Origin: an uncultured Thermomicrobiales bacterium
GTDB lineage: Bacteria > Chloroflexota > Chloroflexia > Thermomicrobiales > CFX8
Length of the DNA: 64,000 bases
Assembly: GCA_964577155.1 (NCBI GenBank)
Contig: CAZNYB010000007.1
Span: 3,038 to 67,037, forward strand
Direction of reading: 5' to 3'
Positions 12,454-64,000 of the stretch are shown here, piece by piece; the first letter of the stretch is position 1; the number at the start of each line of letters is the position of its first letter. The translations under genes were made by a program, and so were the position numbers. The notes beneath the pieces are model-generated. The model made no database searches. It worked only from the letters and a program-made list of their open reading frames with translations, and was not told the DNA's origin.

Positions 12454-14499
12454 CTATCTCCGGTCGTTGTTGCCAAATACAGAATCAAGTTGCTGGTTCA
12501 GTTCTTGCGGATCGGTGACCGGCAACTGGCAAGCGAAGTTGACGCAGACGTAGCCTGCAGGAAGGCCGTCAACAAGCTCACGACCTGCGAGTAATTCAAC
12601 GAGTTCACCCGGTTTGTCCGCAGGATCCCCGACCGCTCGCACACTTCTCGGGAGATACCGGATGCGAACAGTGTTGACCAGTGCTGAAGTCTCGCTGGCG
12701 TCGACCGGGCCGGCAATGGCAATTTCGGCGCTCGGGCCAACGGCGAACGATAGCCCGGAAAGCAGCCGGGAGAATCCCTGGGGCTGTTCTGAGGCGATGA
12801 ATCCGTAGTCTTCGAACACGTCTGTCGCGAGACGGGCGTAGGACACGTTTCCGGTCAAATGACTCAGTCTGACCAGCACGTCAGCGATGACGCTGTTGCC
12901 GGATGGCGTTGCATTGTCATAGGCATCTCTTGGTCTGGCGACAAGCTGCTCGCTCGACGAGCCAGTGTCATAGAAAGCGCCAGTCGATTGATCGTAGAAC
13001 TCTCCGATCGCTGTTTCAGCAAGCTGGTTTGCCCAGGTCAACCACTCTGGCTGGAAAGTAGCCTGATAGAGCGCGAGGAGTCCATCCAGGACAAATGCAT
13101 AGTCCTCGAGAAAGCCATCGATCTTTGCCTGTCCATCTTTGTAAGCGTGTTGCAGCTGGCCGTCGACCAGGAGGCGCTGACGTAAAAATGTTGCGTTCTG
13201 GACCGCTACTTCAGCGTAGCGACTCGACTCAAACACCCAGGCTGCGTTGGCGAAGGCGCGGAGCGCCAGCCCGTTCCAGGAGGTCAGAATCTTTTCGTCG
13301 CGCCCCGGATACTCCCGCTCGTTTCGCGCAGACAGCATCTGTTCCCGAAGCGTCGTAAACCGCTCGTTTCGCCAGAGGAGCCGATCAGGTTCACGCTGGA
13401 TCGCCAGGACGTTTGTGCCTTCAAAGTTCCCGCGTTCGCTCACACCCATCAGTTCCGCGACTGACTGACTATCATGTTCCCCGAGGGCGTCGCGGAGTTC
13501 AGCAAGTGTCCAGGTATAGTACTTCCCTTCTTCACCCTCAGTATCCGCATCCAGCGTGGAGTAAAATCCGCCATCTTCAGACGTTAGCTCGTTGAGAATG
13601 AAGTCGAGCGTCTCCTCGGCGATGGTTCGGAAAAACGGCTCGCCAGTTAACTGATACGCCTGGGTGTAGACGTCAGCCAGCAGAGCGTTGTCGTAGAGCA
13701 TCTTCTCGAAGTGTGGGACTAGCCAGATAGCGTCGACGGTATAGCGGTGAAAGCCACCGCCAACCTGATCGTACAGTCCGCCACGAGCCATGCGATCCAG
13801 CGTCAGATGGATCATTCCGGCGACTTCATCGTTGCCAGTCCGGGTGAAGTAGTCCAGTAAAAATTCGATAGTCATCGCAGCCGGGAACTTTGGCGCTCCG
13901 CCAAATCCGCCATTGGTCCGATCGAACTGCTGGATCAGATTCCCATATGCCTTGTCCAGTAGAGACGAATTGAGCTGGGTTGCTTGAAGATCGGCAGTGA
14001 AATGATGATTGAGATTTTCGGTCAGCTTTTCAGCTGACTCGACGACCTGGTGTTGTCGGTCCCGGTATGCCTCTGACACCCCTTGCAGGATGCGAGGAAA
14101 TCCTGGCATCGGTCCCCGGTCTGCCGGTGGGTAGTAGGTACCTCCGTAGAACGGCTTTCCATCTGGTGTCAAAAAGACGGTCATAGGCCAGCCGCCGTGG
14201 CCGGTCATCATCTGGACCGAGAGCATGTAGAGCGCATCCAGGTCCGGGCGCTCTTCGCGGTCCACCTTGATGTTGACGAAACGTTCGTTCATCAGCGCCG
14301 CGATCTCTTCGTTTTCGAAACTCTCATGCGCCATGACATGACACCAGTGGCAGGCTGAGTAGCCAATAGACAGCAGGATGGGTTTGTCTGTCTCGCGGGC
14401 TAGCTCAAGCGCCTCCGGCCCCCATGGAAACCAGTCTACGGGGTTGTCAGCGTGTTGCAGCAGGTAGGGACTTGATTCGGCGGCCAACTTGTTTGGCAT
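12454..14499 (-). CDS. Thioredoxin-domain protein (YyaL/DUF255 type, N-terminal Trx-like domain plus alpha/alpha-barrel)
   Basis: [18 protein letters not shown] and [18 protein letters not shown]; 681 aa. Confidence 0.85.
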
Positions 14500-14620: not shown

Positions 14621-15715
14621 TTACGAACCGAAGTGCTCGCATGCCAGCGACCGGACCGGTGGCAAACCGGATGTCAGGTCAAGCCAGCTATCGCCACCGC
14701 TCCGGGTGTGAAAAATACGCCCGTCACTGGTCCCGATGTAGACGCCGCCGTCGTCGCAGAGATCGGTCGTCATGCCTTCCCGGTAGAGGGTCACGTTTTC
14801 GATTGTTGGAAGGCCATCGGTCAGCCGCTCCCAGCTATCGCCATCGTCTTTGCTGCGGTAGACCGCAAGCTGCCCGGTCACCCGCACACCAGATTCTTCC
14901 GTCCAGTCGTGCTGAGGCATGGTGTAGATCGTGCCATCACGGGTGATGTCGATGACGAAACCGAATCGGTCTGGCAGGCCATCGCTGATGTCTTCCCAGT
15001 GTTCCCCGTAATTGGTGGAACGGTATGTTCCGACGTGTGACTGCTGGAACAGTTTGCCATTCTCCGAATGGCGGACAAATTTGTGCGTTCAACGATGAAC
15101 CCCCGGATGTTCCACCGGTTTGCCCATCTCCATGGCGAAATCCTCGGCCATCGAGACCGTGCCATCATTGCGAGGTTCCCAGGTTTCACCAAAATCCGGC
15201 GAGTAGAACACGCCGCCTACTGACATGCCAACCAAGAGATCATCCGGCCGGGCTGGATTTGTGACAATCGTATGCAGACACATCCCGCCACCGCCGGGCC
15301 ACCATTCGTTGCGATTTGCCTGACTTCTGAACCCGTCAACCTCGTACCAGGTATCTCCCCAGTTGTCCGACCGGAACAATGTTGACGGGTCGGTGCCGGC
15401 AAGAATAGTGCCGGGCCGGTGACTGGTCGCGGGTTCAACATGCCAGATTTTCTCGACGTCGAACGGCTGGCCAGCTATTTCCCAGGTTTCGCCACGGTCT
15501 CGGGACCGGTAGATGGCGGAGTGATCTTCGCCGTTAGCCGCGGCCCAGACGGTACGTCCATCTCTCGGATCGAGGATGGCATGACTGATGTCCATACCTT
15601 TCAAGAACGGGCCATACGCTTCCCACGATGTACGGTTGAGATCGCTCTCGAATACATACAGTCCGTCGCGGGTGCCTGCGGCAATGAATACGCGGTGATC
15701 GAACCGGGTCGCCAT
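14621..15715 (-). pseudogene. BNR/sialidase-like beta-propeller gene interrupted by one in-frame TGA (codon 209, 15091..15089); nonsense pseudogene or selenocysteine-recoding candidate
   Basis: ORFs 15089..15715 and 14621..14920 share one frame. My translation across the gap has no other stop (…GVHR-TGA-THKFVRHSENGKLFQQSHVGTYRSTNYGEHWEDISDG…). BNR-like S/T-x-D-x-G-x-T/S-W repeats: SRDRGETW, SDNWGDTW, SPDFGETW, STNYGEHW, SKDDGDSW, TRSGGDSW. Confidence 0.7.
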
Positions 15716-15873
15716 GGTCTGCTACTCCTCTGTGCAGCGAACAAAAACTGGAACGCATGTTCTGTACGTACATATTGAATCACTGCCGTGCCTTGATGTC
15801 AATAACCGTCGTTCTACATCGGCGATCAACTTAAGTGACGTTGACAAAAGGCAGGTACAATCTGGTAGGAGGG

Positions 15874-17139
15874 ATGCCTGTGAAAGCAATACAGCTAAGT
15901 GACTCGAAACCACGCTATGCGATGACCCGGATTGCCGCAAAAGCGCGGAATAGCGCCTACTGGGGACCTGTTGGACTGCTCAGTTCCAACGAAGTTGATC
16001 CGCCTGAGTTTCCAAATCAGGAGTGGGTCCGAATCCAGACACGATATGGCGGAATCTGTGGCAGTGATCTCGGGTCTATCACATTAAAGTCGTCGACATC
16101 TACGACGGTATTCGCGTCGTTTCCATTTACACTCGGGCATGAAAATGTCGGCGTGATCGTGGAAACCGGTGAGGATGCGGGGGATTTCCAGCCGGGGCAG
16201 CGTGCGGTCGTCAATCCGCTGCTACCGTGCGCCACCCGCCAGATCGATCCACCGTGTCCGAAGTGCCAGTCTGGCAAACCCAATCTGTGCCAGAACTTTG
16301 ACGGCGGGGAACTATCCGCGGGGGTGATGACCGGTTTTTGCCGGGATACCGGCGGCTCATGGAGTTCCGAGTTCATCGCACACAGGTCTCAGGTTCAGCC
16401 AGTGCCAGTTGGGATATCTGATGAAGAGGCTGTCCTTGCCGAGCCGTTTGCCATTGCTCTTCACCCGGTACTCCAGGATTTGCCTGCTGACGACGATCAG
16501 GTCCTGATCATTGGCTCAGGGATTATTGGCCTGTGCACGATTGCCGCGATCCGCGCCGCAGGCAGCAAAGCGCGCATCGTTGTTACCTCTCGCCACGTGT
16601 TCCAGTCGCTGGCTGCCCGCAAACTCGGCGCAGACGTCGTTCTCAACATTGCAGGCGATGATGAACTCGAAGAGCGTCTGGTTGAAGAATTCGGCGCAAG
16701 ATCGTTGATACCGGTGCTCGGCGACAACGTCATCGTAGGCGGCGCGAACTATGTCTACGACTGTGTTGGCTCTTCGGACTCTCTCAGGACGTCTATCCGG
16801 TTTGCTGCTTCAAACGGTCAGGTCGTGATTATCGGTCTGGCCGGTGTTCCAAAAAACGTCGATTTCACACCGGTCTGGATGAATGAACTGACGTTGCGTG
16901 GAGATTTTTGCTACGCGACGCAAATGTATCAGGGTCAGGAGATCGACCCGATCGCGCTGGCGATGAGACTGATGGCGGAGAAAAAGGCTGATCTGGGCTG
17001 GCTCGTTACCCACCGATTTGAGCTGGATGACTATAAAGAAGCCCTTGCCACGGTGAGCGGCAAGGGCGATAGTGGTGTTATCAAAGCTGTGTTCGCGTTT
17101 GACCTGGCGACAACTACGACATCGGCACCTGAGGGATAA
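15874..17139 (+). CDS. Zinc-dependent medium-chain alcohol/polyol dehydrogenase
   Basis: GICGSDL, TLGHENVG and structural-zinc CPKCQSGKPNLC. Start is ATG 15874 or GTG 15880 after AGGAGG. The 3' end overlaps the convergent gene by 26 nt. Confidence 0.8.
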   Translation: MPVKAIQLSDSKPRYAMTRIAAKARNSAYWGPVGLLSSNEVDPPEFPNQEWVRIQTRYGGICGSDLGSITLKSSTSTTVFASFPFTLGHENVGVIVETGEDAGDFQPGQRAVVNPLLPCATRQIDPPCPKCQSGKPNLCQNFDGGELSAGVMTGFCRDTGGSWSSEFIAHRSQVQPVPVGISDEEAVLAEPFAIALHPVLQDLPADDDQVLIIGSGIIGLCTIAAIRAAGSKARIVVTSRHVFQSLAARKLGADVVLNIAGDDELEERLVEEFGARSLIPVLGDNVIVGGANYVYDCVGSSDSLRTSIRFAASNGQVVIIGLAGVPKNVDFTPVWMNELTLRGDFCYATQMYQGQEIDPIALAMRLMAEKKADLGWLVTHRFELDDYKEALATVSGKGDSGVIKAVFAFDLATTTTSAPEG

Positions 17140-26518: not shown

Positions 26519-26591
26519 GCCCATGTAGCTCAGTAGGCAGAGCACTTTCTTGGTAAGAAAGAGGTCTCCGGTTCAAATCCGGACATGGGCT
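26519..26591 (+). tRNA. tRNA-Thr (anticodon GGU)
   Basis: Hand-folded cloverleaf: GCCCATG/CATGGGC acceptor, GCTC/GAGC D stem, CTTTC-TTGGTAA-GAAAG anticodon arm, TCCGG-TTCAAAT-CCGGA T arm. CCA is not encoded. Confidence 0.9.
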
Positions 26592-26613
26592 CTAGAATTC
26601 GACAATCAATCCG

Positions 26614-28002
26614 CTAGATCTGTTCAAAATATCTGGCGCGCTCCCAGTCGGTCACGGCAGCTCTGTACTGTCCCCTTTCGACTTCATAGAAGTGGGAGTA
26701 GTGATCGATAACGTCGTCTCCGAATGCTCGCCGGGCAAAACTGCTGACCTTAAATCTTGAGATGGCATCGCTAAATGAGCGGGTGACCTGCGGGACATCG
26801 CATGCCGTATAGCCATCACCGGTAAACTCTTCCGGAGGCTCGATCTTGTTGACGATACCGTCGATGCCGCTGGCGAGGACAGCGGCGTAAGCCAGATACG
26901 GATTCACATCCGCGCCTGCAATACGGCTTTCAATCCGCAACGAATTGCCTGAACCAACGATTCTGAAACCGGTCGTCCGGTTGTCATAGCTCCATGCGAT
27001 GCTGGTCGGCGCCCAGCTCTCCGCAACAAAGCGTTTGTAGCTGTTGACCGTCGGCGCATAGAACACCATGAGGTCGTTGACATGATGCATCCAGCCACCA
27101 AGAAAATGTCTGAATGTGTCGGTTGCTTTGTTCCGATCACTCTGGGAGTTGGTTGAGAATAGATTCTGGGTTCTCTCACGATCCCAGAGACTCACATGCA
27201 TGTGGCAACTCGAACCAGCCAGATCGGTTTCGAACTTGGCCATGAAGGTAACTGATTTCCCCTGGCTGTCGGCGATTTCCTTGAAGCATTGCTTGTACAT
27301 CAGGTGCCGGTCGGCCATCGATAGCAGGTCGGCGTACCGGATATTCAGTTCGTGCTGGCCTGGGCCAGCTTCACCTTTGCTGAATTCGACTGGCACACCG
27401 CTCTGAGACAGGTGTTTACGGGCCGCCGCGTTGATCGCTTCTTCGCGAGTTCCCTGGAGAATGTGATAGTCCTCGATGTAATCCCCGGCAGCTTCCAGAT
27501 CCCGGTACCCGCTCTGTCGAGCTTCACGGTATCCGGTATTGAAGATGTAGTATTCGAGTTCGCTGGCCCCTACAGCGGCATAACCGAGGTTGTCCGCGTT
27601 TGCGATCTGACGTTTGAGCAGGCTGCGCGGCGCGATGTCCAGAAGCTCGTGCCGATCATCGACAATGTCGCAGAGGACGATGGCTGTCTTCTCCAGCCAG
27701 GTTGCCAGGCGGAGTGAACCCATATCCGGCACACAGTGCACGTCGCCATACCCTTTCTCCCAGTTGGCGAACCCGTACCCTGGAACCGGATTCATGTCCA
27801 TGTCGGTAGTCAGCAAGTAATCACAGGCATGCATGCCATCGTCGGCGATACGCTCAATAAAGAACTCAGGATCAATCCGCTTGCCGACCAATCTGCCATA
27901 GTGATCCGGGAAGGCGGTAATAATCGTTTCGATCTGGTCGGCATCAACCAGATCCTGGAGTTCGGCAATCGTTAGCATGCCTTTGACGTTCGCTTCTGTC
28001 AT
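26614..28002 (-). CDS. Glutamine-synthetase-family protein (GlnA3/PuuA-like gamma-glutamyl ligase)
   Basis: SSCHMHVSLW and NSLRIESRIAGADVNPYLAYAA. Start taken as ATG 28002 (MTEANV). Confidence 0.8.
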   Translation of the reverse strand: MTEANVKGMLTIAELQDLVDADQIETIITAFPDHYGRLVGKRIDPEFFIERIADDGMHACDYLLTTDMDMNPVPGYGFANWEKGYGDVHCVPDMGSLRLATWLEKTAIVLCDIVDDRHELLDIAPRSLLKRQIANADNLGYAAVGASELEYYIFNTGYREARQSGYRDLEAAGDYIEDYHILQGTREEAINAAARKHLSQSGVPVEFSKGEAGPGQHELNIRYADLLSMADRHLMYKQCFKEIADSQGKSVTFMAKFETDLAGSSCHMHVSLWDRERTQNLFSTNSQSDRNKATDTFRHFLGGWMHHVNDLMVFYAPTVNSYKRFVAESWAPTSIAWSYDNRTTGFRIVGSGNSLRIESRIAGADVNPYLAYAAVLASGIDGIVNKIEPPEEFTGDGYTACDVPQVTRSFSDAISRFKVSSFARRAFGDDVIDHYSHFYEVERGQYRAAVTDWERARYFEQI

Positions 28003-28252
28003 TCCCGTCCCCGTTCTCAACAGATGATCGACATATCGGAGATCCGACTCTCCTGATCTTGCTGTGATCGCTTAAGCGACCTCGACTACAAAAGTTCGAC
28101 GTTCAACTTTAGACCGAAGCTTCACTATCAGAAATTGAAGAATAGCTTGTCAGGCAAACACAGCAAGGTGCAATCATAAAACAGCCTATGCTATATTTCG
28201 CGGGCACAGGCGTCTTGTGAGATAGTGTCTGTGATGTTGTTGCAACGACAAC

Positions 28253-28326
28253 GCCGACGTAGCTCAGTTGGCCAGAGCAGCTGTTTCGTAAACAGCAGGT
28301 CATCGGTTCGAATCCGATCGTCGGCT
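28253..28326 (+). tRNA. tRNA-Thr (anticodon CGU)
   Basis: GCCGACG/CGTCGGC acceptor, GCTGT-TTCGTAA-ACAGC anticodon arm, ATCGG-TTCGAAT-CCGAT T arm. CCA is not encoded. Confidence 0.9.
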
Positions 28327-28387
28327 CCCTCGATTAATCAAATAGATCGATTCTCTGCTGGTTTGGTGTTTTTCGGACTGGTTCAGT

Positions 28388-36621: not shown

Positions 36622-37668
36622 TCAACTCCCTGAAATAGCCGGTTCCTGAGCGCCAATTGTCCGGCCAACTGCCGCCGCCACCCCACGTAGCTGCGGCATC
36701 AAACTTGCAAAGTTTTCGAATGTCAGCGATTGCCCGCCATCGGAAAGCGCGTGGTCCGGGTTCGGATGTACTTCGATCATCAGCCCGTCTGCCCCGGCAG
36801 CAACGGCAGCCATCGCCATCGCCGGGATGAGTCGCCATTTCCCGGTCCCGTGGCTCGGGTCGGCGAATATTGGCAGATGGCTAAGCCGTTTGATGACCGG
36901 GACGGCCGTCAGGTCGAAGGTATTTCTGGTGTAGGACTCGAAAGTCCGGATGCCTCGCTCACAGAAGATCACGTTCGGATTGCCCTGCGCCAGGATGTAT
37001 TCCGCCAGCAGCAGCCATTCTTCGTACTGGACGCTCATGCCGCGTTTGAGGAACGCGGGTTTCCCCGATTGTCCAACCTCTTCAAGAAGCTGGTAGTTCT
37101 GGCAGTTGCGTGCGCCGATCTGGAAAATATCGGTATATCGGCCGACGAGTTCGACATCTTGCGGTGTCATCACTTCGGTGATTACTGCCAGACCAGTGGC
37201 TTCACGGGCTTGAGCCAGGATCTTGAGTCCATCTTCTTTCATCCCGCGGAATTCATACGGAGATGTTCGCGGTTTGAAGGCGCCGCCACGTAAGATGGTT
37301 GCTCCGGCATCAGCCACGGCACGTGCGGTTTTCATCACCATCTCTTCGGACTCAACCGAACACGGTCCGGCAATGACCGAGATGTTTTCACCGCCAATGA
37401 TATGGTCGCCGACCTGAATGGTCGTCGGCTCAGGATGAAATTCACGGCTTGCGAGTTTGTACCGCTTGGTCACCCGGTAGACGCTTTCGACCTGGTCCAT
37501 CGCCATGAGCGAACTTCGGAGGTGTTCGGGGATTGGCAAACCGACGACGCCGATAATCGCTGATTCTTCGCCGATTGAAAGGTGGACATCGAGATTTTCT
37601 TCTCTAACCCGTGCGGTTACTTTCTCGATGTCTTCGTCGGTGAAACCTTGTCTCATGATGATAATCAC
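36622..37668 (-). CDS. aroF: 3-deoxy-7-phosphoheptulonate (DAHP) synthase, type I-beta with N-terminal ferredoxin-like regulatory domain
   Basis: [27 protein letters not shown] and an N-terminal extension of about 75 aa ([17 protein letters not shown]). Confidence 0.9.
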
Positions 37669-38136: not shown

Positions 38137-38958
38137 TTAGTCGCCACGCATCATTCTGATAAACTCACCGGCTTTCTCTGGCACCTGATCGGATGGAACA
38201 TCCTCCAGATAATCAAAGAGCGCGCTGGCAAAGATTACGCCATCCGCCAACTGCTCTGCTGCCAGAACGTGCTTGCGCGTGGAAATGCCAAAACCGATTG
38301 CCAACGGTAGACTGGTGTACCCCCGCACCCATTCGACGTATCTGGCCAATCCGGGTTGCAGTTCGTTTCGCGCTCCAGTGACGCCAGTAAGGGCAACCAC
38401 GTAGATGAACCCGTTCGCGCGCTCCAGTACCGCCTGTGCGCGGTCGGGCGTGCTGGTCGGGGCGATGAGATAGATGAGATGAACACCCTGATTGATGCAA
38501 TAGCCGAGTAACTCATCACTTTCCTCTGGCGGCAGGTCGGGGATGATCAGACCATCCACACCAACTTCCGAGCACGTTTTCACAAACTCTTCGACTCCAT
38601 AGGCCAGAATCGGGTTGTAGTATCCCATGAAGAGTAACGGGGCTTCAACGTGCTTCTCGGTTCGCAACCGGTGGACGATATCAAAACCAATGCTGGTGGT
38701 GGCGCCATTTTCGAGAGCTTTCTGGCTCACGCGCTGAACGGTAGGACCGTCGGCGATTGGATCGCTGAACGGAATGCCAAGCTCGATCAGATCAGCGCCA
38801 GCATCGATCATGGCAGGAACCATGCGCTCCGTGTCGCCCATCCTTGGGAAGCAAATGGTGGTGAACGGCATGAAAACAGTGCGGTTCCCGGCTTTGGCTT
38901 CCTCAAACAACCGGGTAACCCGGGTATCGGTCAGAGAGGCAGGAATTGTCTTGCTCAT
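38137..38958 (-). CDS. trpA: Tryptophan synthase alpha chain
   Basis: [21 protein letters not shown] overlap with trpB. Confidence 0.95.
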
Positions 38959-40211
38959 AGAGTCACTCCAAACGCCCGTGCGACCGTATGCATGTCTTTG
39001 TCACCCCTGCCGGAGAGGTTGATGATCAGCGATTCAGCCTTCGGGTTCGCCGCCGCCCACTCTGCGCCAAGATAAATGGCATGCGCGGATTCAAGCGCAG
39101 GTATGATCCCTTCCGCTTCGCTCAACATTTTGAGACCTTCTAGCGCCTGGTCGTCAGTCACGCCGGCAAAGGTCGCTCTACCGGTATCTTTCAGGTAAGC
39201 AAGCTCCGGACCGACTCCGGGGTAGTCTAGTCCGGCTGATATCGAGTGGGCTTCCTGAATCTGTCCGAACTCGTCCTGGAGAATGTACGACTTTGCGCCA
39301 TGCAAGACGCCAATGTCGCCAGCGGTTAGACTGGCTGCGTGCGCTCCTGATTCAAGACCATGTCCGGCAGCTTCAGCTCCGATCAATTCGACGTCGGTGT
39401 CGGGAATAAACTCGTAGAATGCTCCCATCGCGTTTGATCCGCCACCGATACAGGCAATGACGGCGTCCGGAAGCCTGTTTTCGGATTTGAGTATCTGTTG
39501 GCGTGCTTCACGCCCGATGATCGACTGGAAATCACGCACCAGCATCGGGTAGGGATGCATTCCAGAGACGGTCCCGATCAGGTAGTAAGTGTCTTCCACA
39601 TTCGCCACCCAGTAGCGGATCGCTTCGTTCAATGCGTCTTTCAGCGTGCGAGAACCGCTCGATACCGGCCTGACTTCAGCGCCGAGAAGCTTCATGCGGA
39701 ACACATTGAGCGATTGCCGTTCAACGTCGATATCACCCATGAAAACAATGCACTCAAGACCGAGCAAGGCGCAAACAGTGGCCGAGGCGACGCCATGTTG
39801 TCCTGCGCCGGTTTCGGCGATGACCTTTTCTTTGCCCATCCGTTTGGCAAGCAAGCCCTGTCCGAGCGCGTTGTTGATTTTGTGCGCGCCGGTGTGTGCC
39901 AGATCCTCTCGTTTGAGGTAGACCCTAGGGCCGCCCCAACTCCGGGTCAGATTTTCACAGTAGGTGAGCGGCGTCGGGCGACCGACGTAATCCCTTTCCA
40001 TATCATGAAACAGTTTGACAAAATCCGGGTCATTCCGGGCATCTTCGTAGGCTTCGGTGAGTTCTATTATCGCAGGCATGAGCGTTTCAGGAGCGTAGAT
40101 GCCTCCAAAATCCCCATACCTCCCGAACCGGTCAGGTTCAGTGTAGTTGCTGTGTTCTGTCACAAGTGTGTTCAAGGTAGTTCCTTCCGGACTCAATTCA
40201 ACCGGACTCAT
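38955..40211 (-). CDS. trpB: Tryptophan synthase beta chain
   Basis: HTGAHKINN and GAGQHGVA. Start moved to ATG 40211 (TGAAATG junction with trpF). Confidence 0.95.
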
Positions 40212-40212
40212 T

Positions 40213-40890
40213 TCAAGTGTGGATATTGCTGGGCCGGGCGATCTGAATAAACTCTCTAATTTTCGCCGGATCTTTGAGCTTTTGTGTCTCAACTCCGCTC
40301 GACACGTCTACCGCGAATGGTTGAACTTGATGGATCGCCCGGGTTACGTTTTCAGGATGCAAGCCGCCGGCCAGAAACACGGCGTGCTGGTTCGCGAACT
40401 CCGCGGCAATCGACCAGTCGCCAACTTCACCTGTGCCTCCGAATCTTCCATCGACATGGGTGTCGACGAGAAACGCAAACGGTGGTTTCGCGGCGTTTTT
40501 CCAGTCTTCAAAACGGCGTTTGGCCGGGTCGGGATTGGCGCTGTCAACCCGAAGCGCCGTGATTACCGGTGCTTCTATCATTTCGCTAATTTCAGGAGAT
40601 TCATCTCCGTGCAGTTGCACGATGTTGATGCCTAGCTCTCTGACCATTTGATTGATGTTCTGACTGGGCTGATTGACGAAAAGACCGACTACTGAGACAG
40701 CACGGGTCGTATCAACCTGCCGAACCCTCTCAACGACTGCAATTGCTTCCTGCGGTGACACATAGCGATGACTGGGCGGGTAAAAGACAATTCCGATGTA
40801 GTTTGCCCCGCTTTGCACAGCGACTTCGGCATGGCGAGGTTCACTAATCCCGCATATTTTGATCCGTATGTTGGCTGGCGTTAAAGTCAA
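40213..40890 (-). CDS. trpF: Phosphoribosylanthranilate isomerase
   Basis: IKICGI ... GLFVNQ ... VQLHGDE. ATGA overlap with trpC. Confidence 0.9.
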
Positions 40891-41696
40891 TTGAGAAGAT
40901 CCCTGACCGCGCTGGAGCGATCGGGTTGGCGCATCAGCGATTCTCCGACGAGGACGGCATCGACACCAGCAGTGGCAAGCCGAACAACGTCTTCACGGTC
41001 TCGTACGCCGCTTTCACCGACGATAGCGATATGATCGGGAATCTGCGGCGCCAGTGCCATCGTCACATTGAGATCCACGTCAAATGTCTTCAGGTTGCGA
41101 TTATTGACACCGACAATGTTTGGTGAAATCTCAAGCGCGCGCTGTAGTTCTTCTGGATTGTGCACCTCTATCAGCGCAGCCATGCCCAGCTCAGTTGCAA
41201 TGCTGAATAACTCAGCCAGCTCACGATCACGAAGGGCGGCAACGATCAGCAGGATGCAGTCAGCACCGGAAGCGCGTGCTTCGAACACCTGGTATGCATC
41301 GACAACGAAGTCTTTCCGGAGCACGGGAATCGGATCGGTTACCGGGTGGGCTCTAGCGGCAACTGTCTGCAGATCTGCCAGGCTGCCGCCAAAAAATGTT
41401 GCGTCGGTAAGGACAGAGATTGCCGAGCAACCGCCCTGAATGTAGGCATCGGCCACTTCTTCAACATTGATGTCTTCAGCAATCACCCCTTTAGACGGTG
41501 AAGCTCGCTTGATCTCGGCGATGACGCCAATCGGGCCATATTTCAGGGCGTCGAACATAGAGCAAGCCGGTGTCTGCGCTTCCGCAAGCTTTCGCAGTTC
41601 ACGCTCTGGGGAAGCTTGTTTGCGTTCTTCCAGTTCGGCGCGGGTGTTGGTGAGAATTCTGTCCAGATAGGTGCCGGTAATGAGAGGTGAAGTCAT
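40887..41696 (-). CDS. trpC: Indole-3-glycerol-phosphate synthase
   Basis: IAEIKRASPSKG and GVNNRNLKTF. TGATG junction with trpD. Confidence 0.95.
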   Translation of the reverse strand: MTSPLITGTYLDRILTNTRAELEERKQASPERELRKLAEAQTPACSMFDALKYGPIGVIAEIKRASPSKGVIAEDINVEEVADAYIQGGCSAISVLTDATFFGGSLADLQTVAARAHPVTDPIPVLRKDFVVDAYQVFEARASGADCILLIVAALRDRELAELFSIATELGMAALIEVHNPEELQRALEISPNIVGVNNRNLKTFDVDLNVTMALAPQIPDHIAIVGESGVRDREDVVRLATAGVDAVLVGESLMRQPDRSSAVRDLLN

Positions 41697-42745
41697 CAGA
41701 CGGCCACCCGCTGCCGTTCAGTCATCCGGGTCGTCAGCTCCGCCAGTTCGGCGACTTTCGCGGCCGCCGCGCCGCTATCGATCGACTCCGCCGCCAGTTC
41801 GATCCCTTTGCTGATGGATTCGGTGGCGTCCGCGGCATACAGCGAGGCTCCGGCGTTGAGCAGTGTGATGTCTCGTGTTGCGCCTTTTTCACCGTTGAGG
41901 ACGGCAAGCAGGATCTTGGCGTTCTCGGTCACGCTGCCTCCTTTGATCTGTTCGTGCGGGTAGTTCGGCATTCCGAACTGCGAGGGTTCGATTTCATAGG
42001 CTGTCACCCAGGCGCTCTCTCGCATCAACATCTCGGCGACAGTCGTTGGTCCGGCGACGCCAATTTCATCCAGCCCTTCATGGGCGTGAACGACGAGTGA
42101 ATGCCGTGATCCGAGCAGGCCGAGGACTCGCGCGAATCGTGAAGCCGTTTCACTGTCTGGCACGCCAATGACCTGATGGGTCGCTCCAGCCGGGTTTACC
42201 AGCGGACCTAGGAGATTGAAGACGGTTCTGATCCCGATTTCTCGGCGAACTGGACCGGCAAACCGCATCGCCGGGTGAAACGCAGGCGCGTACATGAAGC
42301 CAATTCCAACCGTTTCGACGGCTTCAGCTACCTGTTCTGGCTCCAGCTCAATCTGAACCCCTAGCGCTTCGAGCACGTCAGCGGAACCGCACCGGCTGGT
42401 CATTGCACGGTTGCCATGCTTTGCCACTTTGACGCCTGCTCCGGCGGTAACGAACGCGGCAGTAGTCGAGATATTGAAGGAATGGCTTGCGTCGCCACCG
42501 GTGCCGACTGTGTCGACGACAGGCTCTGACAGGTCCAGCGGAACCGGAATGACCTTCGCCCGCATGACCGTCGCGAACGCAGCCAGCTCTTCGTCGGTCT
42601 CGCCGCGAATTCGCAACGCGGTGAGAAACGAGCCAATCTGCGGAGCGGAGGCTTCTCCGTTCATAATGATTTCCATCGCGTCGGTCGCCTCCGCACTCGA
42701 GAGGGATTCGCCCTCGACGACTTTCGCAATATGAGGTTTCAGCAT
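41696..42745 (-). CDS. trpD: Anthranilate phosphoribosyltransferase
   Basis: DTVGTGGD and KHGNRA. Confidence 0.95.
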   Translation of the reverse strand: MLKPHIAKVVEGESLSSAEATDAMEIIMNGEASAPQIGSFLTALRIRGETDEELAAFATVMRAKVIPVPLDLSEPVVDTVGTGGDASHSFNISTTAAFVTAGAGVKVAKHGNRAMTSRCGSADVLEALGVQIELEPEQVAEAVETVGIGFMYAPAFHPAMRFAGPVRREIGIRTVFNLLGPLVNPAGATHQVIGVPDSETASRFARVLGLLGSRHSLVVHAHEGLDEIGVAGPTTVAEMLMRESAWVTAYEIEPSQFGMPNYPHEQIKGGSVTENAKILLAVLNGEKGATRDITLLNAGASLYAADATESISKGIELAAESIDSGAAAAKVAELAELTTRMTERQRVAV

Positions 42746-45118: not shown

Positions 45119-45148
45119 AAAAAACCTCACGTCCCAAAGGGACGGAGG
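45119..45148 (-). terminator. Intrinsic terminator of the T-box leader
   Basis: mRNA CCUCCGUCCC-UUU-GGGACGUGAGG followed by U6 (fwd A-run 45119-45124). Confidence 0.85.
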
Positions 45149-45413
45149 TCAGCTTCTGACATCCGCGGTGCCACCCTCGTTGATCGCCGTCAGGCGATCC
45201 ACTCATCAGGGATGAACATCATCAGCATCATCCCAGTCCCTGGATAACGGTAGGGCTTCCGGCGCTGCTTACTAGGCGTATACCGCTGTTCGGAGCGCAA
45301 CTCCCGGATCCATTCCACACCTCTGCGAGTATCAGGCTCTCACCGTGTCCCGACTCTCTGAACTCGCGTCCAGCGTGTACTTGTTCCGATCATCGTCGCT
45401 AAACGATCGAACG
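45119..45413 (-). promoter_or_regulatory. T-box leader (tRNA-Trp-responsive riboswitch) of the trp-aro operon
   Basis: Read on the minus strand. Stem I has an AGAGAG bulge and an ACGGUGAGAG distal loop. The specifier loop ends GAA-UGG-A (UGG = 45312..45310). The T-box sequence GAGGGUGGCACCGCGG lies at 45163-45178. A terminator follows. Confidence 0.85.
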
Positions 45414-63584: not shown

Positions 63585-64000
63585 TTACCTGGCAAATTCA
63601 GCGAACGTCCTGGCTACTGCGAGTGCCTGCTCGTAGACGACGTCGCGTTCTATCTGGATCAGTTCCTCGCCAATAAGCCTGACATGCGACGGTTCGGTGT
63701 GTTGAACCGTCCGCTTTAGATTCAGGATTGATGGGGCGTCGATTGAAATCGTCGATCGATCGCCAGTGTCGTGCTGGATGACCACATTGAATAGGTTTGA
63801 GTTGGGACTCGCTCCGATATGGAGTCTATGCAGCCCTGATCCGGGCCTTGCTTTTTCGGTAAGGGTCAGCTGACAACGTTCACCTTGCCCGGTTGATGCT
63901 TGAAGAATCGCCGTCCCAGGATTGAAGTCTGCAGCATCAGGACGCCAGTCCAAAGACGATGCCAACCACCCGGCCAGCAATAGAGCTTCAGCCTGATACC
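63585..64000 (-). CDS. opcA: OpcA-like glucose-6-phosphate dehydrogenase assembly protein, C-terminal part (gene continues beyond the right edge)
   Basis: The frame is open to position 64000 (…YQAEALLLAGWLASSLDW…). It lies immediately upstream of pgl, as in zwf-opcA-pgl operons. The family call rests partly on context. Confidence 0.6.
   Translation of the reverse strand, partial: YQAEALLLAGWLASSLDWRPDAADFNPGTAILQASTGQGERCQLTLTEKARPGSGLHRLHIGASPNSNLFNVVIQHDTGDRSTISIDAPSILNLKRTVQHTEPSHVRLIGEELIQIERDVVYEQALAVARTFAEFAR

Follow-up and report, generated by a model that had tools for sequence, protein, structure and literature searches.

Introduction

Lineage-specific conversions of cysteine (Cys) to selenocysteine (Sec) are known in protein families other than the one treated here, as are remnant selenocysteine insertion sequence (SECIS) elements that persist after the opposite change from Sec to Cys (PMC1794560). 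The use of Sec is documented for some Chloroflexi (PMC1794560 Table 2; PMC5389517), and the text of BSepDB reports Dehalococcoidia with 46-49 selenoprotein genes (PMC13326102). The closest solved structure to the protein considered here is PDB 3B7F, the product of Reut_B4987 from Ralstonia eutropha JMP134, which was deposited by structural genomics as a 'putative glycosyl hydrolase with BNR repeats' and has no assigned function. Here we describe a gene for a β-propeller of this type on the minus strand of a 64,000-nucleotide (nt) stretch of DNA from an uncultured Thermomicrobiales bacterium (assembly GCA_964577155.1, contig CAZNYB010000007.1, positions 3,038 to 67,037; hereafter the window), whose reading frame is interrupted by a single TGA that is followed by a hairpin.

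We propose that this TGA (15091..15089) is a Sec codon, which would make the gene product a strong candidate selenoprotein, and we place the probability of this reading at roughly 0.75. An original prediction, made from the letters of the window, had weighed a Sec codon against a fresh nonsense mutation or a sequencing error. The first of these is now favoured by an invariant Cys column opposite the codon and by a distant clade of the same protein family in which a TGA, an open reading frame (ORF) beyond it and a hairpin are all found at the equivalent place.

The gene and the residue opposite the TGA

The features on which the argument depends are as follows.

14621..15715, minus strand: complete gene for a BNR/Asp-box Sortilin-Vps10-type β-propeller when read through the TGA, 364 residues plus TAA in a single frame
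15725..15730, minus strand: Shine-Dalgarno-like GAGGAG, 9 nt 5' of the ATG at 15715 (direct sequence reading)
15089..15091, minus strand: in-frame TGA, codon 209, the proposed Sec codon, aligned with an invariant Cys and with a TGA in the distant clade
15073..15088, minus strand: 16-nt spacer between the UGA and the hairpin, ACGCACAAAUUUGUCC (direct sequence reading)
15056..15072, minus strand: SECIS-like hairpin GCCAUUC-GGA-GAAUGGC (5' arm 15072..15066, loop 15065..15063, 3' arm 15062..15056)

ORF calling splits this locus into two pieces of the same frame, 15089..15715 (208 amino acids) and 14621..14920 (99 amino acids), which the original prediction had joined into one gene. Translation of the minus strand from 14621 to 15715 confirms that it is a single gene of 365 codons with one internal stop, the TGA at codon 209, and a terminal TAA, and that the 155 codons from the TGA to the TAA contain no second stop or frameshift. 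Judged from the sequence, the expression signals of the gene look intact.

A search for homologues returned 1311 proteins at E ≤ 1e-10, nearly all of them uninterrupted and about 360 amino acids long, with a top match of 66% identity. The best 120 of these 1311 were aligned with MAFFT. Opposite the TGA, 119/119 homologues have Cys, the only gap coming from the N-terminal fragment encoded by the window itself, and His is found at +2 in 119/119. The motif around the column is [VI][HG][RQN]-C-[VIT]-H-K, and its flanks include the ...GQCVHK... type, so that both the Cys and the flank expected in the original prediction are present. Further invariant polar residues are D49, R51, H148, S165, D174, N183, Q225 and H227. 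In the topology of an AlphaFold model of a relative (P0001, see below), H148, C209/H211 and Q225/H227 begin inner strands or sit in a B-C loop, from which we infer that they may lie together near the axis on the propeller's top face, with the Cys or Sec as a putative catalytic or redox residue on that face. The invariant Cys is in itself not decisive, as it would fit a Sec/Cys pair and a one-step nonsense change from TGC to TGA equally well. Codon 209 accounts for one of the 112 one-step nonsense paths in the gene, and for one of the 28 that yield TGA.

The hairpin after the TGA

The predicted hairpin, 16 nt after the TGA, with a 7-bp stem and a GGA triloop, was confirmed at 15072..15056. All seven pairs are Watson-Crick, and the triloop begins at the 24th nt after the UGA, with 23 nt between them; the element thereby agrees with bacterial SECIS criteria, which place the apical loop 16-37 nt after the UGA and call for a G at the start of the loop. 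Its stand-alone energy is -7.8 kcal/mol (z = -4.4 against shuffles). A proposed extension of the stem by UUU/AAA does exist, but it can be reached only across a 4-nt asymmetric bulge (GUCC). A scan against Rfam gave no match to a SECIS-type family at either gathering or permissive thresholds.

To set a background we used the 16,296 codons in the 49 long ORFs of the window and a generic description of the hairpin (perfect stem of at least 7 bp, loop start at 16-37 nt, 3-14 nt in the loop and a G at loop position 1 or 2). Such a hairpin follows 180/16,296 codons (1.1%) with Watson-Crick pairs only, close to the roughly 1% estimated in the original prediction, and 10.5% when G-U pairs are allowed. 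Taken alone, a chance rate of 1.1% is modest evidence.

The hairpin spans codons R215-G220, which read ...RHPDNG... in relatives and ...RHSENG... in the window. The stem owes its top pairs to two amino acid replacements, CCG to UCG (Pro217 to Ser, at a position where Pro is 93% conserved) and GAU/GAC to GAG (Asp218 to Glu), and its remaining pairs to codon choices at R215, H216, N219 and G220.

The next possible hairpin downstream lies at 15026-15051 on the minus strand (UGUUCC...GGAACA, 6 bp with a 14-nt loop), and its 3' arm relies on a window-specific change of Val230 to Thr (GGA ACA).

A distant clade with TGA at the same column

We built a degenerate DNA pattern from conserved anchors of the family (W138, G141, G144 and H148 on the upstream side, H211 and Q-Q-x-H-x-G on the downstream side) with TGA fixed at the Cys column; it matches the window gene once and shuffles of the window zero times. 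Scanning metagenomes with this pattern gave six contigs, five of them distinct, with a GC content of 65-71% and an in-frame TGA exactly at the Cys column. These contigs read ...VGT-TGA-VHKLL.HPAAPG.LYQQNH... and all of them carry a 9-bp hairpin whose triloop is GGC or GGA; the four that are long enough continue for 157 further homologous codons to the true stop (L013 and L016 end earlier).

A protein search with the N-terminal 216 amino acids of one such contig yielded 7644 matches at E ≤ 1e-20, of which the best 120 clusters were examined. Among these 120, 98 clusters (97-64% identity) end exactly at the column with ...VGT or ...VFT, 87 of them being exactly 216 amino acids long, and those that carry a name come from metagenome-assembled genomes (MAGs) of Planctomycetota. 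The other 22 are full-length neighbours (372-375 amino acids; Gemmatimonadota, 'Eisenbacteria' and others), and all 22 have Cys at the column. When four truncated members were read as DNA (L017-L020, two from NCBI MAGs), the TGA was present in all four, as was the hairpin, and the frame ran on for 155-157 codons, so that at the DNA level TGA stands at this column in 10 contigs (L011-L020; 9 distinct sequences). In NCBI the genes of this Sec-type clade (L011-L020; P0121-P0240) are named as 216-amino acid 'hypothetical' proteins or as 'WD40/YVTN/BNR-like repeat-containing protein [Planctomycetota bacterium]'. Two assemblies of the clade carry names, GCA_021776825.1 and GCA_021776735.1.

The hairpins of the Sec-type clade have stems of 6-9 bp, GGC or GGA triloops and a loop that lies 23-26 nt after the UGA. 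In these hairpins 93.6% of the alignment cells are paired, compared with 35-51% in slid controls. One member is especially instructive: L020 has lost two codons (HPEGV versus HPAAPGV), which a covariance model aligns as a symmetric 3+3-nt deletion at the top of the stem, yet it retains a 6-bp stem and a GGA triloop with the loop at 23 nt and an energy of -7.5 kcal/mol. What looked like covariation in the lower stem (L011 and L018 against the others) is a shifted register with a bulge and was not counted.

In two of three Cys-type members of the distant clade the hairpin is absent. The third (L026, 3001-4122; GCA_973788605.1, CCZJVV010000067.1) has TGC and the peptide HPAAPG together with a complete 9-bp hairpin with a GGC triloop, probably a SECIS left over from a recent conversion of Sec to Cys. 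On sequence grounds, the distant clade is a Sec/Cys family by the usual criteria, because the TGA is conserved across divergence, the downstream ORF is intact, Cys homologues exist and the hairpin is associated with the TGA.

The clade also has a constant neighbour. A MoaD/ThiS/SAMP1-like gene of about 90 amino acids, ending in ...HQAISGG, always follows and often overlaps its propeller gene; it was seen in L012, L014, L015 and L017-L020 of the Sec-type and in L026-L028 of the Cys-type (for example L019:7119-7406 and L028:4119-4391). The pairing suggests, as a hypothesis, chemistry that involves a sulfur-carrier or ubiquitin-like protein.

Comparison of the window with the Sec-type clade

The window gene and the Sec-type clade have in common the UGA column and, after it, the invariant H211, Q225, H227 and G229. 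In both, the hairpin covers the same codons, starting at R/x215-H216, and has a GGN loop, which is GGA in the window as in L014, L018 and L020. The spacer is 16 nt long in the window and 17 nt in the clade, and the loop follows the UGA after 23 nt in the window, as in L020, and after 26 nt in the 9-bp type. With -7.8 kcal/mol, the window hairpin is also close in energy to that of L020 (-7.5 kcal/mol). A descriptor derived from the Sec-type clade alone (GGN triloop, stem of at least 6 bp, loop start 23-26 nt after the codon) describes the window site, with its 7 Watson-Crick pairs, whereas over the same 16,296 background codons it is found at 15 (0.09%) with G-U pairs allowed and at none with Watson-Crick pairs only. 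There are also clear differences: the clade has a GC content of 65-72%, one extra residue between H211 and Q225, and the adjoining MoaD/ThiS/SAMP-like Gly-Gly gene, which was not found beside the window gene or beside its Thermomicrobiales relatives. The window and clade elements resemble each other in geometry and not in primary sequence.

Source assemblies and close relatives

An identical TGA-terminated product of 208 amino acids is encoded on contigs from five separately assembled sequencing runs (SRR15635845, -46, -47, -48 and -57), which, given their adjacent accession numbers, are probably related samples. Over 1.3-8.5 kb, four of the five contigs match the window at 100% identity. The fifth (L004, Logan assembly of SRR15635848) keeps the TGA and has 4 differences, being otherwise identical over 2.3 kb; these are clustered in 82 nt (window 16181-16262; L004 29-110) in the neighbouring Zn-dependent alcohol-dehydrogenase gene and could mark a variant strain or a small patch of recombination.

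Among genomes, the nearest are MAGs of Thermomicrobiales/Chloroflexia, with 52-63% identity over the N-terminal part of the protein. In the close genome relatives the codon is TGC and the gene intact in 5/5, and none of these five Cys-type relatives has a hairpin of at least 6 bp in the SECIS zone; the orthologous 17 nt of two of them fold at just -2.2 and -3.2 kcal/mol. The original prediction had named orthologues in close relatives as a test; relatives with TGC and without the hairpin are compatible with either a Sec or a nonsense reading. The distant branch has both the TGA and a hairpin of the same geometry.

Selenocysteine or a fresh nonsense codon

The most serious alternative is that the window gene is a fresh nonsense pseudogene, in which a recent single C to A change turned TGC into a TGA stop and the hairpin is coincidental. 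We consider this unlikely, though it has real points in its favour, and a number of our own results weigh against the Sec reading. The window TGA stands alone in its own clade: TGC, a single substitution away, is the codon of all five genome relatives, and none of the 90 relatives retrieved with the N-terminal 208 amino acids of the window protein stops at the column, all being intact with Cys. Since no truncated relative occurs among the 90, the window TGA would, if it is a real Sec codon, be an independent event. Conservation of the TGA across divergence, the strongest argument for Sec, thus holds for the distant clade and not for the window's lineage, and that clade is just 33% identical to the window protein. 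A covariance model (R1) built on the UGA and hairpin region of 8 Sec-type clade sequences recovers the held-out L020 at 57 bits but reports no window hairpin at E ≤ 10; the model is dominated by near-identical GC-rich sequence (93% column identity) and for this reason tests sequence homology rather than function. Formal pair counting found no double-sided compensatory changes in the Sec-type clade hairpin. Nor does the folding energy over the 45-60 nt that follow the TGA stand out, with -9.7 and -13.0 kcal/mol in the window, compared with -5.2 to -13.5 and -12.5 to -17.9 kcal/mol in Cys-type relatives.

The Sec machinery, likewise, was not encountered. Using ARAGORN and tblastn with E. coli SelA, SelB and SelD, we found no tRNA-Sec, selA, selB or selD in the 64 kb of the window, the adjoining 4.7 kb on its right or the loci retrieved for comparison; as the DNA searched is about 2% of a genome, this is the expected outcome and no evidence of absence. 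A literature search gave nothing on Sec use that is specific to Thermomicrobiales. Gene callers and NCBI treat the product as a 208-amino acid protein.

Signs of decay were sought in the protein itself. Where conservation in the alignment is at least 90%, the window protein departs at 2/33 columns before the TGA (D118N, H132Q) and at 2/32 after it (P217S, N226S); this lack of asymmetry is a weak test, because a dead gene decays on both sides. These 4/65 departures are more than in about 88% of intact homologues (12% reach 4) and could reflect an early relaxation of constraint. Identity to relatives is 1.13 times as high after the TGA as before it in the window, within 1 standard deviation (SD) of the 1.19 +/- 0.09 of intact relatives. 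Beyond the departures, nothing in the sequence appears to indicate relaxed constraint, in tests whose power against a recent event is low, the nearest relative being 66% identical.

Set against these points, a nonsense mutation would have had to strike, on one of 112 one-step paths, the very codon that is apparently Sec elsewhere in the family. It would have had to be followed by a chance hairpin with the SECIS geometry of that family, for which the background is at most 0.09% (1% on the generic model). The top pairs of this hairpin depend on the replacement of a 93%-conserved Pro, and no close Cys-type relative has such a structure. The gene shows no further lesion and no excess of divergence downstream. 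In short, the Sec reading needs one condition, a Sec pathway in the organism, where the nonsense reading needs three coincidences.

Other explanations

It is very improbable that the gene is deliberately split, with the 208-residue N-terminal half-propeller functional and the downstream part silent or separate. The N-terminal ORF does have a good ribosome-binding site and is called by annotation pipelines, but just after the TGA there is no start codon (an ATG is first reached 57 codons further on), a 7-bladed propeller cut in half would be unlikely to fold, and conservation beyond the TGA is at the level of intact relatives.

A sequencing or assembly error with a true codon of TGC or TGT, which the original prediction had kept as an alternative, would account for a single-base difference from all relatives. 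The recurrence of the TGA in the five separately assembled runs, one of them a variant contig with 4 single-nucleotide differences nearby, does away with nearly all of its plausibility, and no full-length TGC version of the species' protein is present in a collection of 5.8 billion proteins, where the best full-length match is 66% identical.

Genome-wide reassignment of TGA to a sense codon such as Trp or Gly can practically be dismissed, as TGA is the commonest stop in the window (20/49 long ORFs; 7/15 Pfam-confirmed genes), the GC content is 55%, and the aligned residue is Cys and neither Trp nor Gly.

The propeller family

The protein scores 50.2 bits with Pfam PF15902 (cut-off 33) and 31.4 bits with BNR_6 (cut-off 27), and its translation contains Asp-box motifs such as SRDRGETW, SDNWGDTW, SPDFGETW, STNYGEHW and SKDDGDSW. 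An AlphaFold model of P0001, the relative that is 66% identical to the window protein, was made from an 82-sequence alignment and has a predicted local distance difference test (pLDDT) score of 95.2. It superimposes on PDB 3B7F with a template modelling (TM) score of 0.87 at 32% identity (E = 4.9e-31), and the sequence match has E = 2.4e-46. The window protein thus belongs to an uncharacterised BNR/Vps10-type family that is typified by 3B7F, and the label 'sialidase-like' attached to it in the original prediction found no support.

Identity as a glycoside hydrolase (GH33, GH74, F510_1955) was considered and rejected, as NF045728 (F510_1955) reaches 55.6 bits against a cut-off of 175 and BNR_2 reaches 20.1 against 31.4; so was identity as a Ycf48/photosystem II assembly factor, for which NF010237 scores 14 bits with a cut-off of 326. 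The GH74 xyloglucanases, GH33 sialidases and Ycf48 have the Asp-box (SxDxGxxW) repeats and the propeller fold in common with the family (Foldseek E = 1e-10 to 1e-12), but the GH74 xyloglucanase and Ycf48 structures differ, with 12-17% identity and a TM score of about 0.3-0.6 to the P0001 model. Annotation names such as 'sialidase' or 'photosystem II assembly factor' thus say no more than what the fold is.

3B7F itself is like the window family in fold and membership. It is unlike it at the critical column, where it apparently has Asp (...HDPHCVVQHP versus ...HRCTHKVVRHP, in a register read from a HMMER alignment), and for this reason it says little about the chemistry of the Cys or Sec. Given this Asp, the propeller family may comprise chemically different subgroups. 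In 3B7F a Cys is found three residues after the apparent Asp (DPHC versus C-T-H-K).

Neighbouring genes and genome context

One neighbour of the window gene recurs in its relatives.

12454..14499, minus strand: DsbH/YyaL-type thioredoxin-domain protein with CxxC, downstream neighbour of the propeller gene (Pfam PF03190, 257 bits)

A gene of the same type also lies downstream of the Cys-type propeller gene in the Thermomicrobiales loci L007 (4676-6625) and L009 (4694-6619). Its product could be a redox partner of the propeller, or the arrangement could merely be inherited synteny.

Pfam annotation of about 30 ORFs of the window identified housekeeping genes only. A scan of the window for other pairs of ORFs joined by read-through was too noisy to use, and GC content at third codon positions gave no discrimination. 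Past window position 64000 the contig continues (L024:6105-11616) with a pentose-phosphate cluster (6-phosphogluconolactonase-like, OpcA, G6PD and 6PGD) and no selenium-related genes. A T-box leader lies at 45135-45402 on the minus strand (Rfam RF00230, 104 bits), upstream of a run of minus-strand genes that includes an anthranilate phosphoribosyltransferase type (41696-42745), a PALP enzyme (38955-40292) and a DAHP synthase (36622-37668); from its gene content this looks like a T-box-controlled tryptophan/aromatic operon. Two tRNA-Thr genes (26519-26592 and 28253-28328, plus strand, anticodons GGU and CGU) flank a minus-strand gene of the glutamine-synthetase type (26614-28020).

Proposed mechanism and implications

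If codon 209 is a Sec codon, the mechanism would be the one established for bacteria (the E. coli fdhF case and the bacterial SECIS model), from which we infer it. A ribosome would arrive at the UGA while the hairpin 16 nt downstream recruits SelB with GTP and Sec-tRNA(Sec). SelB would bind the apical GGA loop and the upper stem and outcompete release factor 2 (RF2), so that Sec is inserted and termination does not take place. This presumes that the organism decodes Sec and that its SelB recognises the hairpin. The product would be a cytosolic β-propeller of 364 residues, with Sec in place of the invariant Cys of a [C/U]-x-H motif (here U-T-H-K). The in-ORF hairpin would have arisen in the window lineage partly through Pro217 to Ser and Asp218 to Glu and partly through codon choice, as a lineage-specific conversion of Cys to Sec in a Thermomicrobiales-type bacterium, parallel to that of the older and larger Sec-type clade. 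That the residue is invariant, that some hundred clusters are predicted to have Sec there and that invariant His residues surround it would fit a nucleophilic, redox or metal-binding active site better than a glycosidase.

We found no earlier account of such a family. In the text of a 2026 review that tabulates 119 prokaryotic families we found no BNR, propeller, sialidase, hydrolase, WD40 or Ycf48-type selenoprotein and no UxH motif (PMC13188914); the main text of BSepDB, with 111 families, makes no mention of such a family (PMC13326102), and neither do the deep-Sep paper (PMC12013277) or Haft's 2022 preprint. A full-text literature search for selenoprotein together with BNR gave no such family, and no NCBIfam model reaches its cut-off for the window clade or the Sec-type clade. 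An unnamed 'hypothetical protein' family of metagenome surveys could be this propeller family, and text searches cannot prove absence.

Taking these observations together, we lean, by somewhat more than an even chance, towards the broader proposal that 3B7F-type propellers with an invariant [Cys/Sec]-x-His are an undescribed and widespread bacterial selenoprotein family. On this proposal, the Sec members are split in the databases into 'hypothetical proteins' of 216 and about 150 amino acids; the MoaD/ThiS/SAMP-like Gly-Gly partner of the main clade would point to redox or sulfur/selenium transfer and not to glycoside hydrolysis; and the window would be a second, independent and very recent conversion of Cys to Sec, with a de novo minimal SECIS that cost a conserved proline. 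The insertion mechanism would be the known bacterial one, and the finding at the level of the family is more secure than that at the level of the window.

If the TGA is decoded, a fold that is neither thioredoxin-like nor that of a metalloenzyme would enter the bacterial selenoproteome, and about a hundred clusters at 90% identity, which are now truncated, would need re-annotation. The Sec/Cys position would mark a functional residue in a solved family of unknown function (3B7F), and together with the MoaD/ThiS-like partner it would provide a testable redox or sulfur-carrier hypothesis. The window would also be an unusually clean snapshot of the origin of a SECIS, made by few codon changes, two of them nonsynonymous, against relatives that have TGC and no hairpin, and as such would bear on an old problem, namely how a UGA and its SECIS come to be acquired together. 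If the TGA is a nonsense codon instead, the window gene is an ordinary fresh pseudogene and the family-level finding still stands.

Comparison with known selenoproteins

The locus is like the E. coli fdhF paradigm, and like the cases sought by bSECISearch (Zhang & Gladyshev), in that a UGA stands opposite a conserved Cys, a stem-loop lies near to it with a G at the start of the loop, and homologues with Cys and with Sec coexist. It is unlike most known selenoprotein families in its protein, a BNR β-propeller as opposed to the thioredoxin-like or metal-cofactor enzymes (PMC13188914), in the U-x-H motif around the proposed Sec, and in the minimal GGN triloop of its hairpin.

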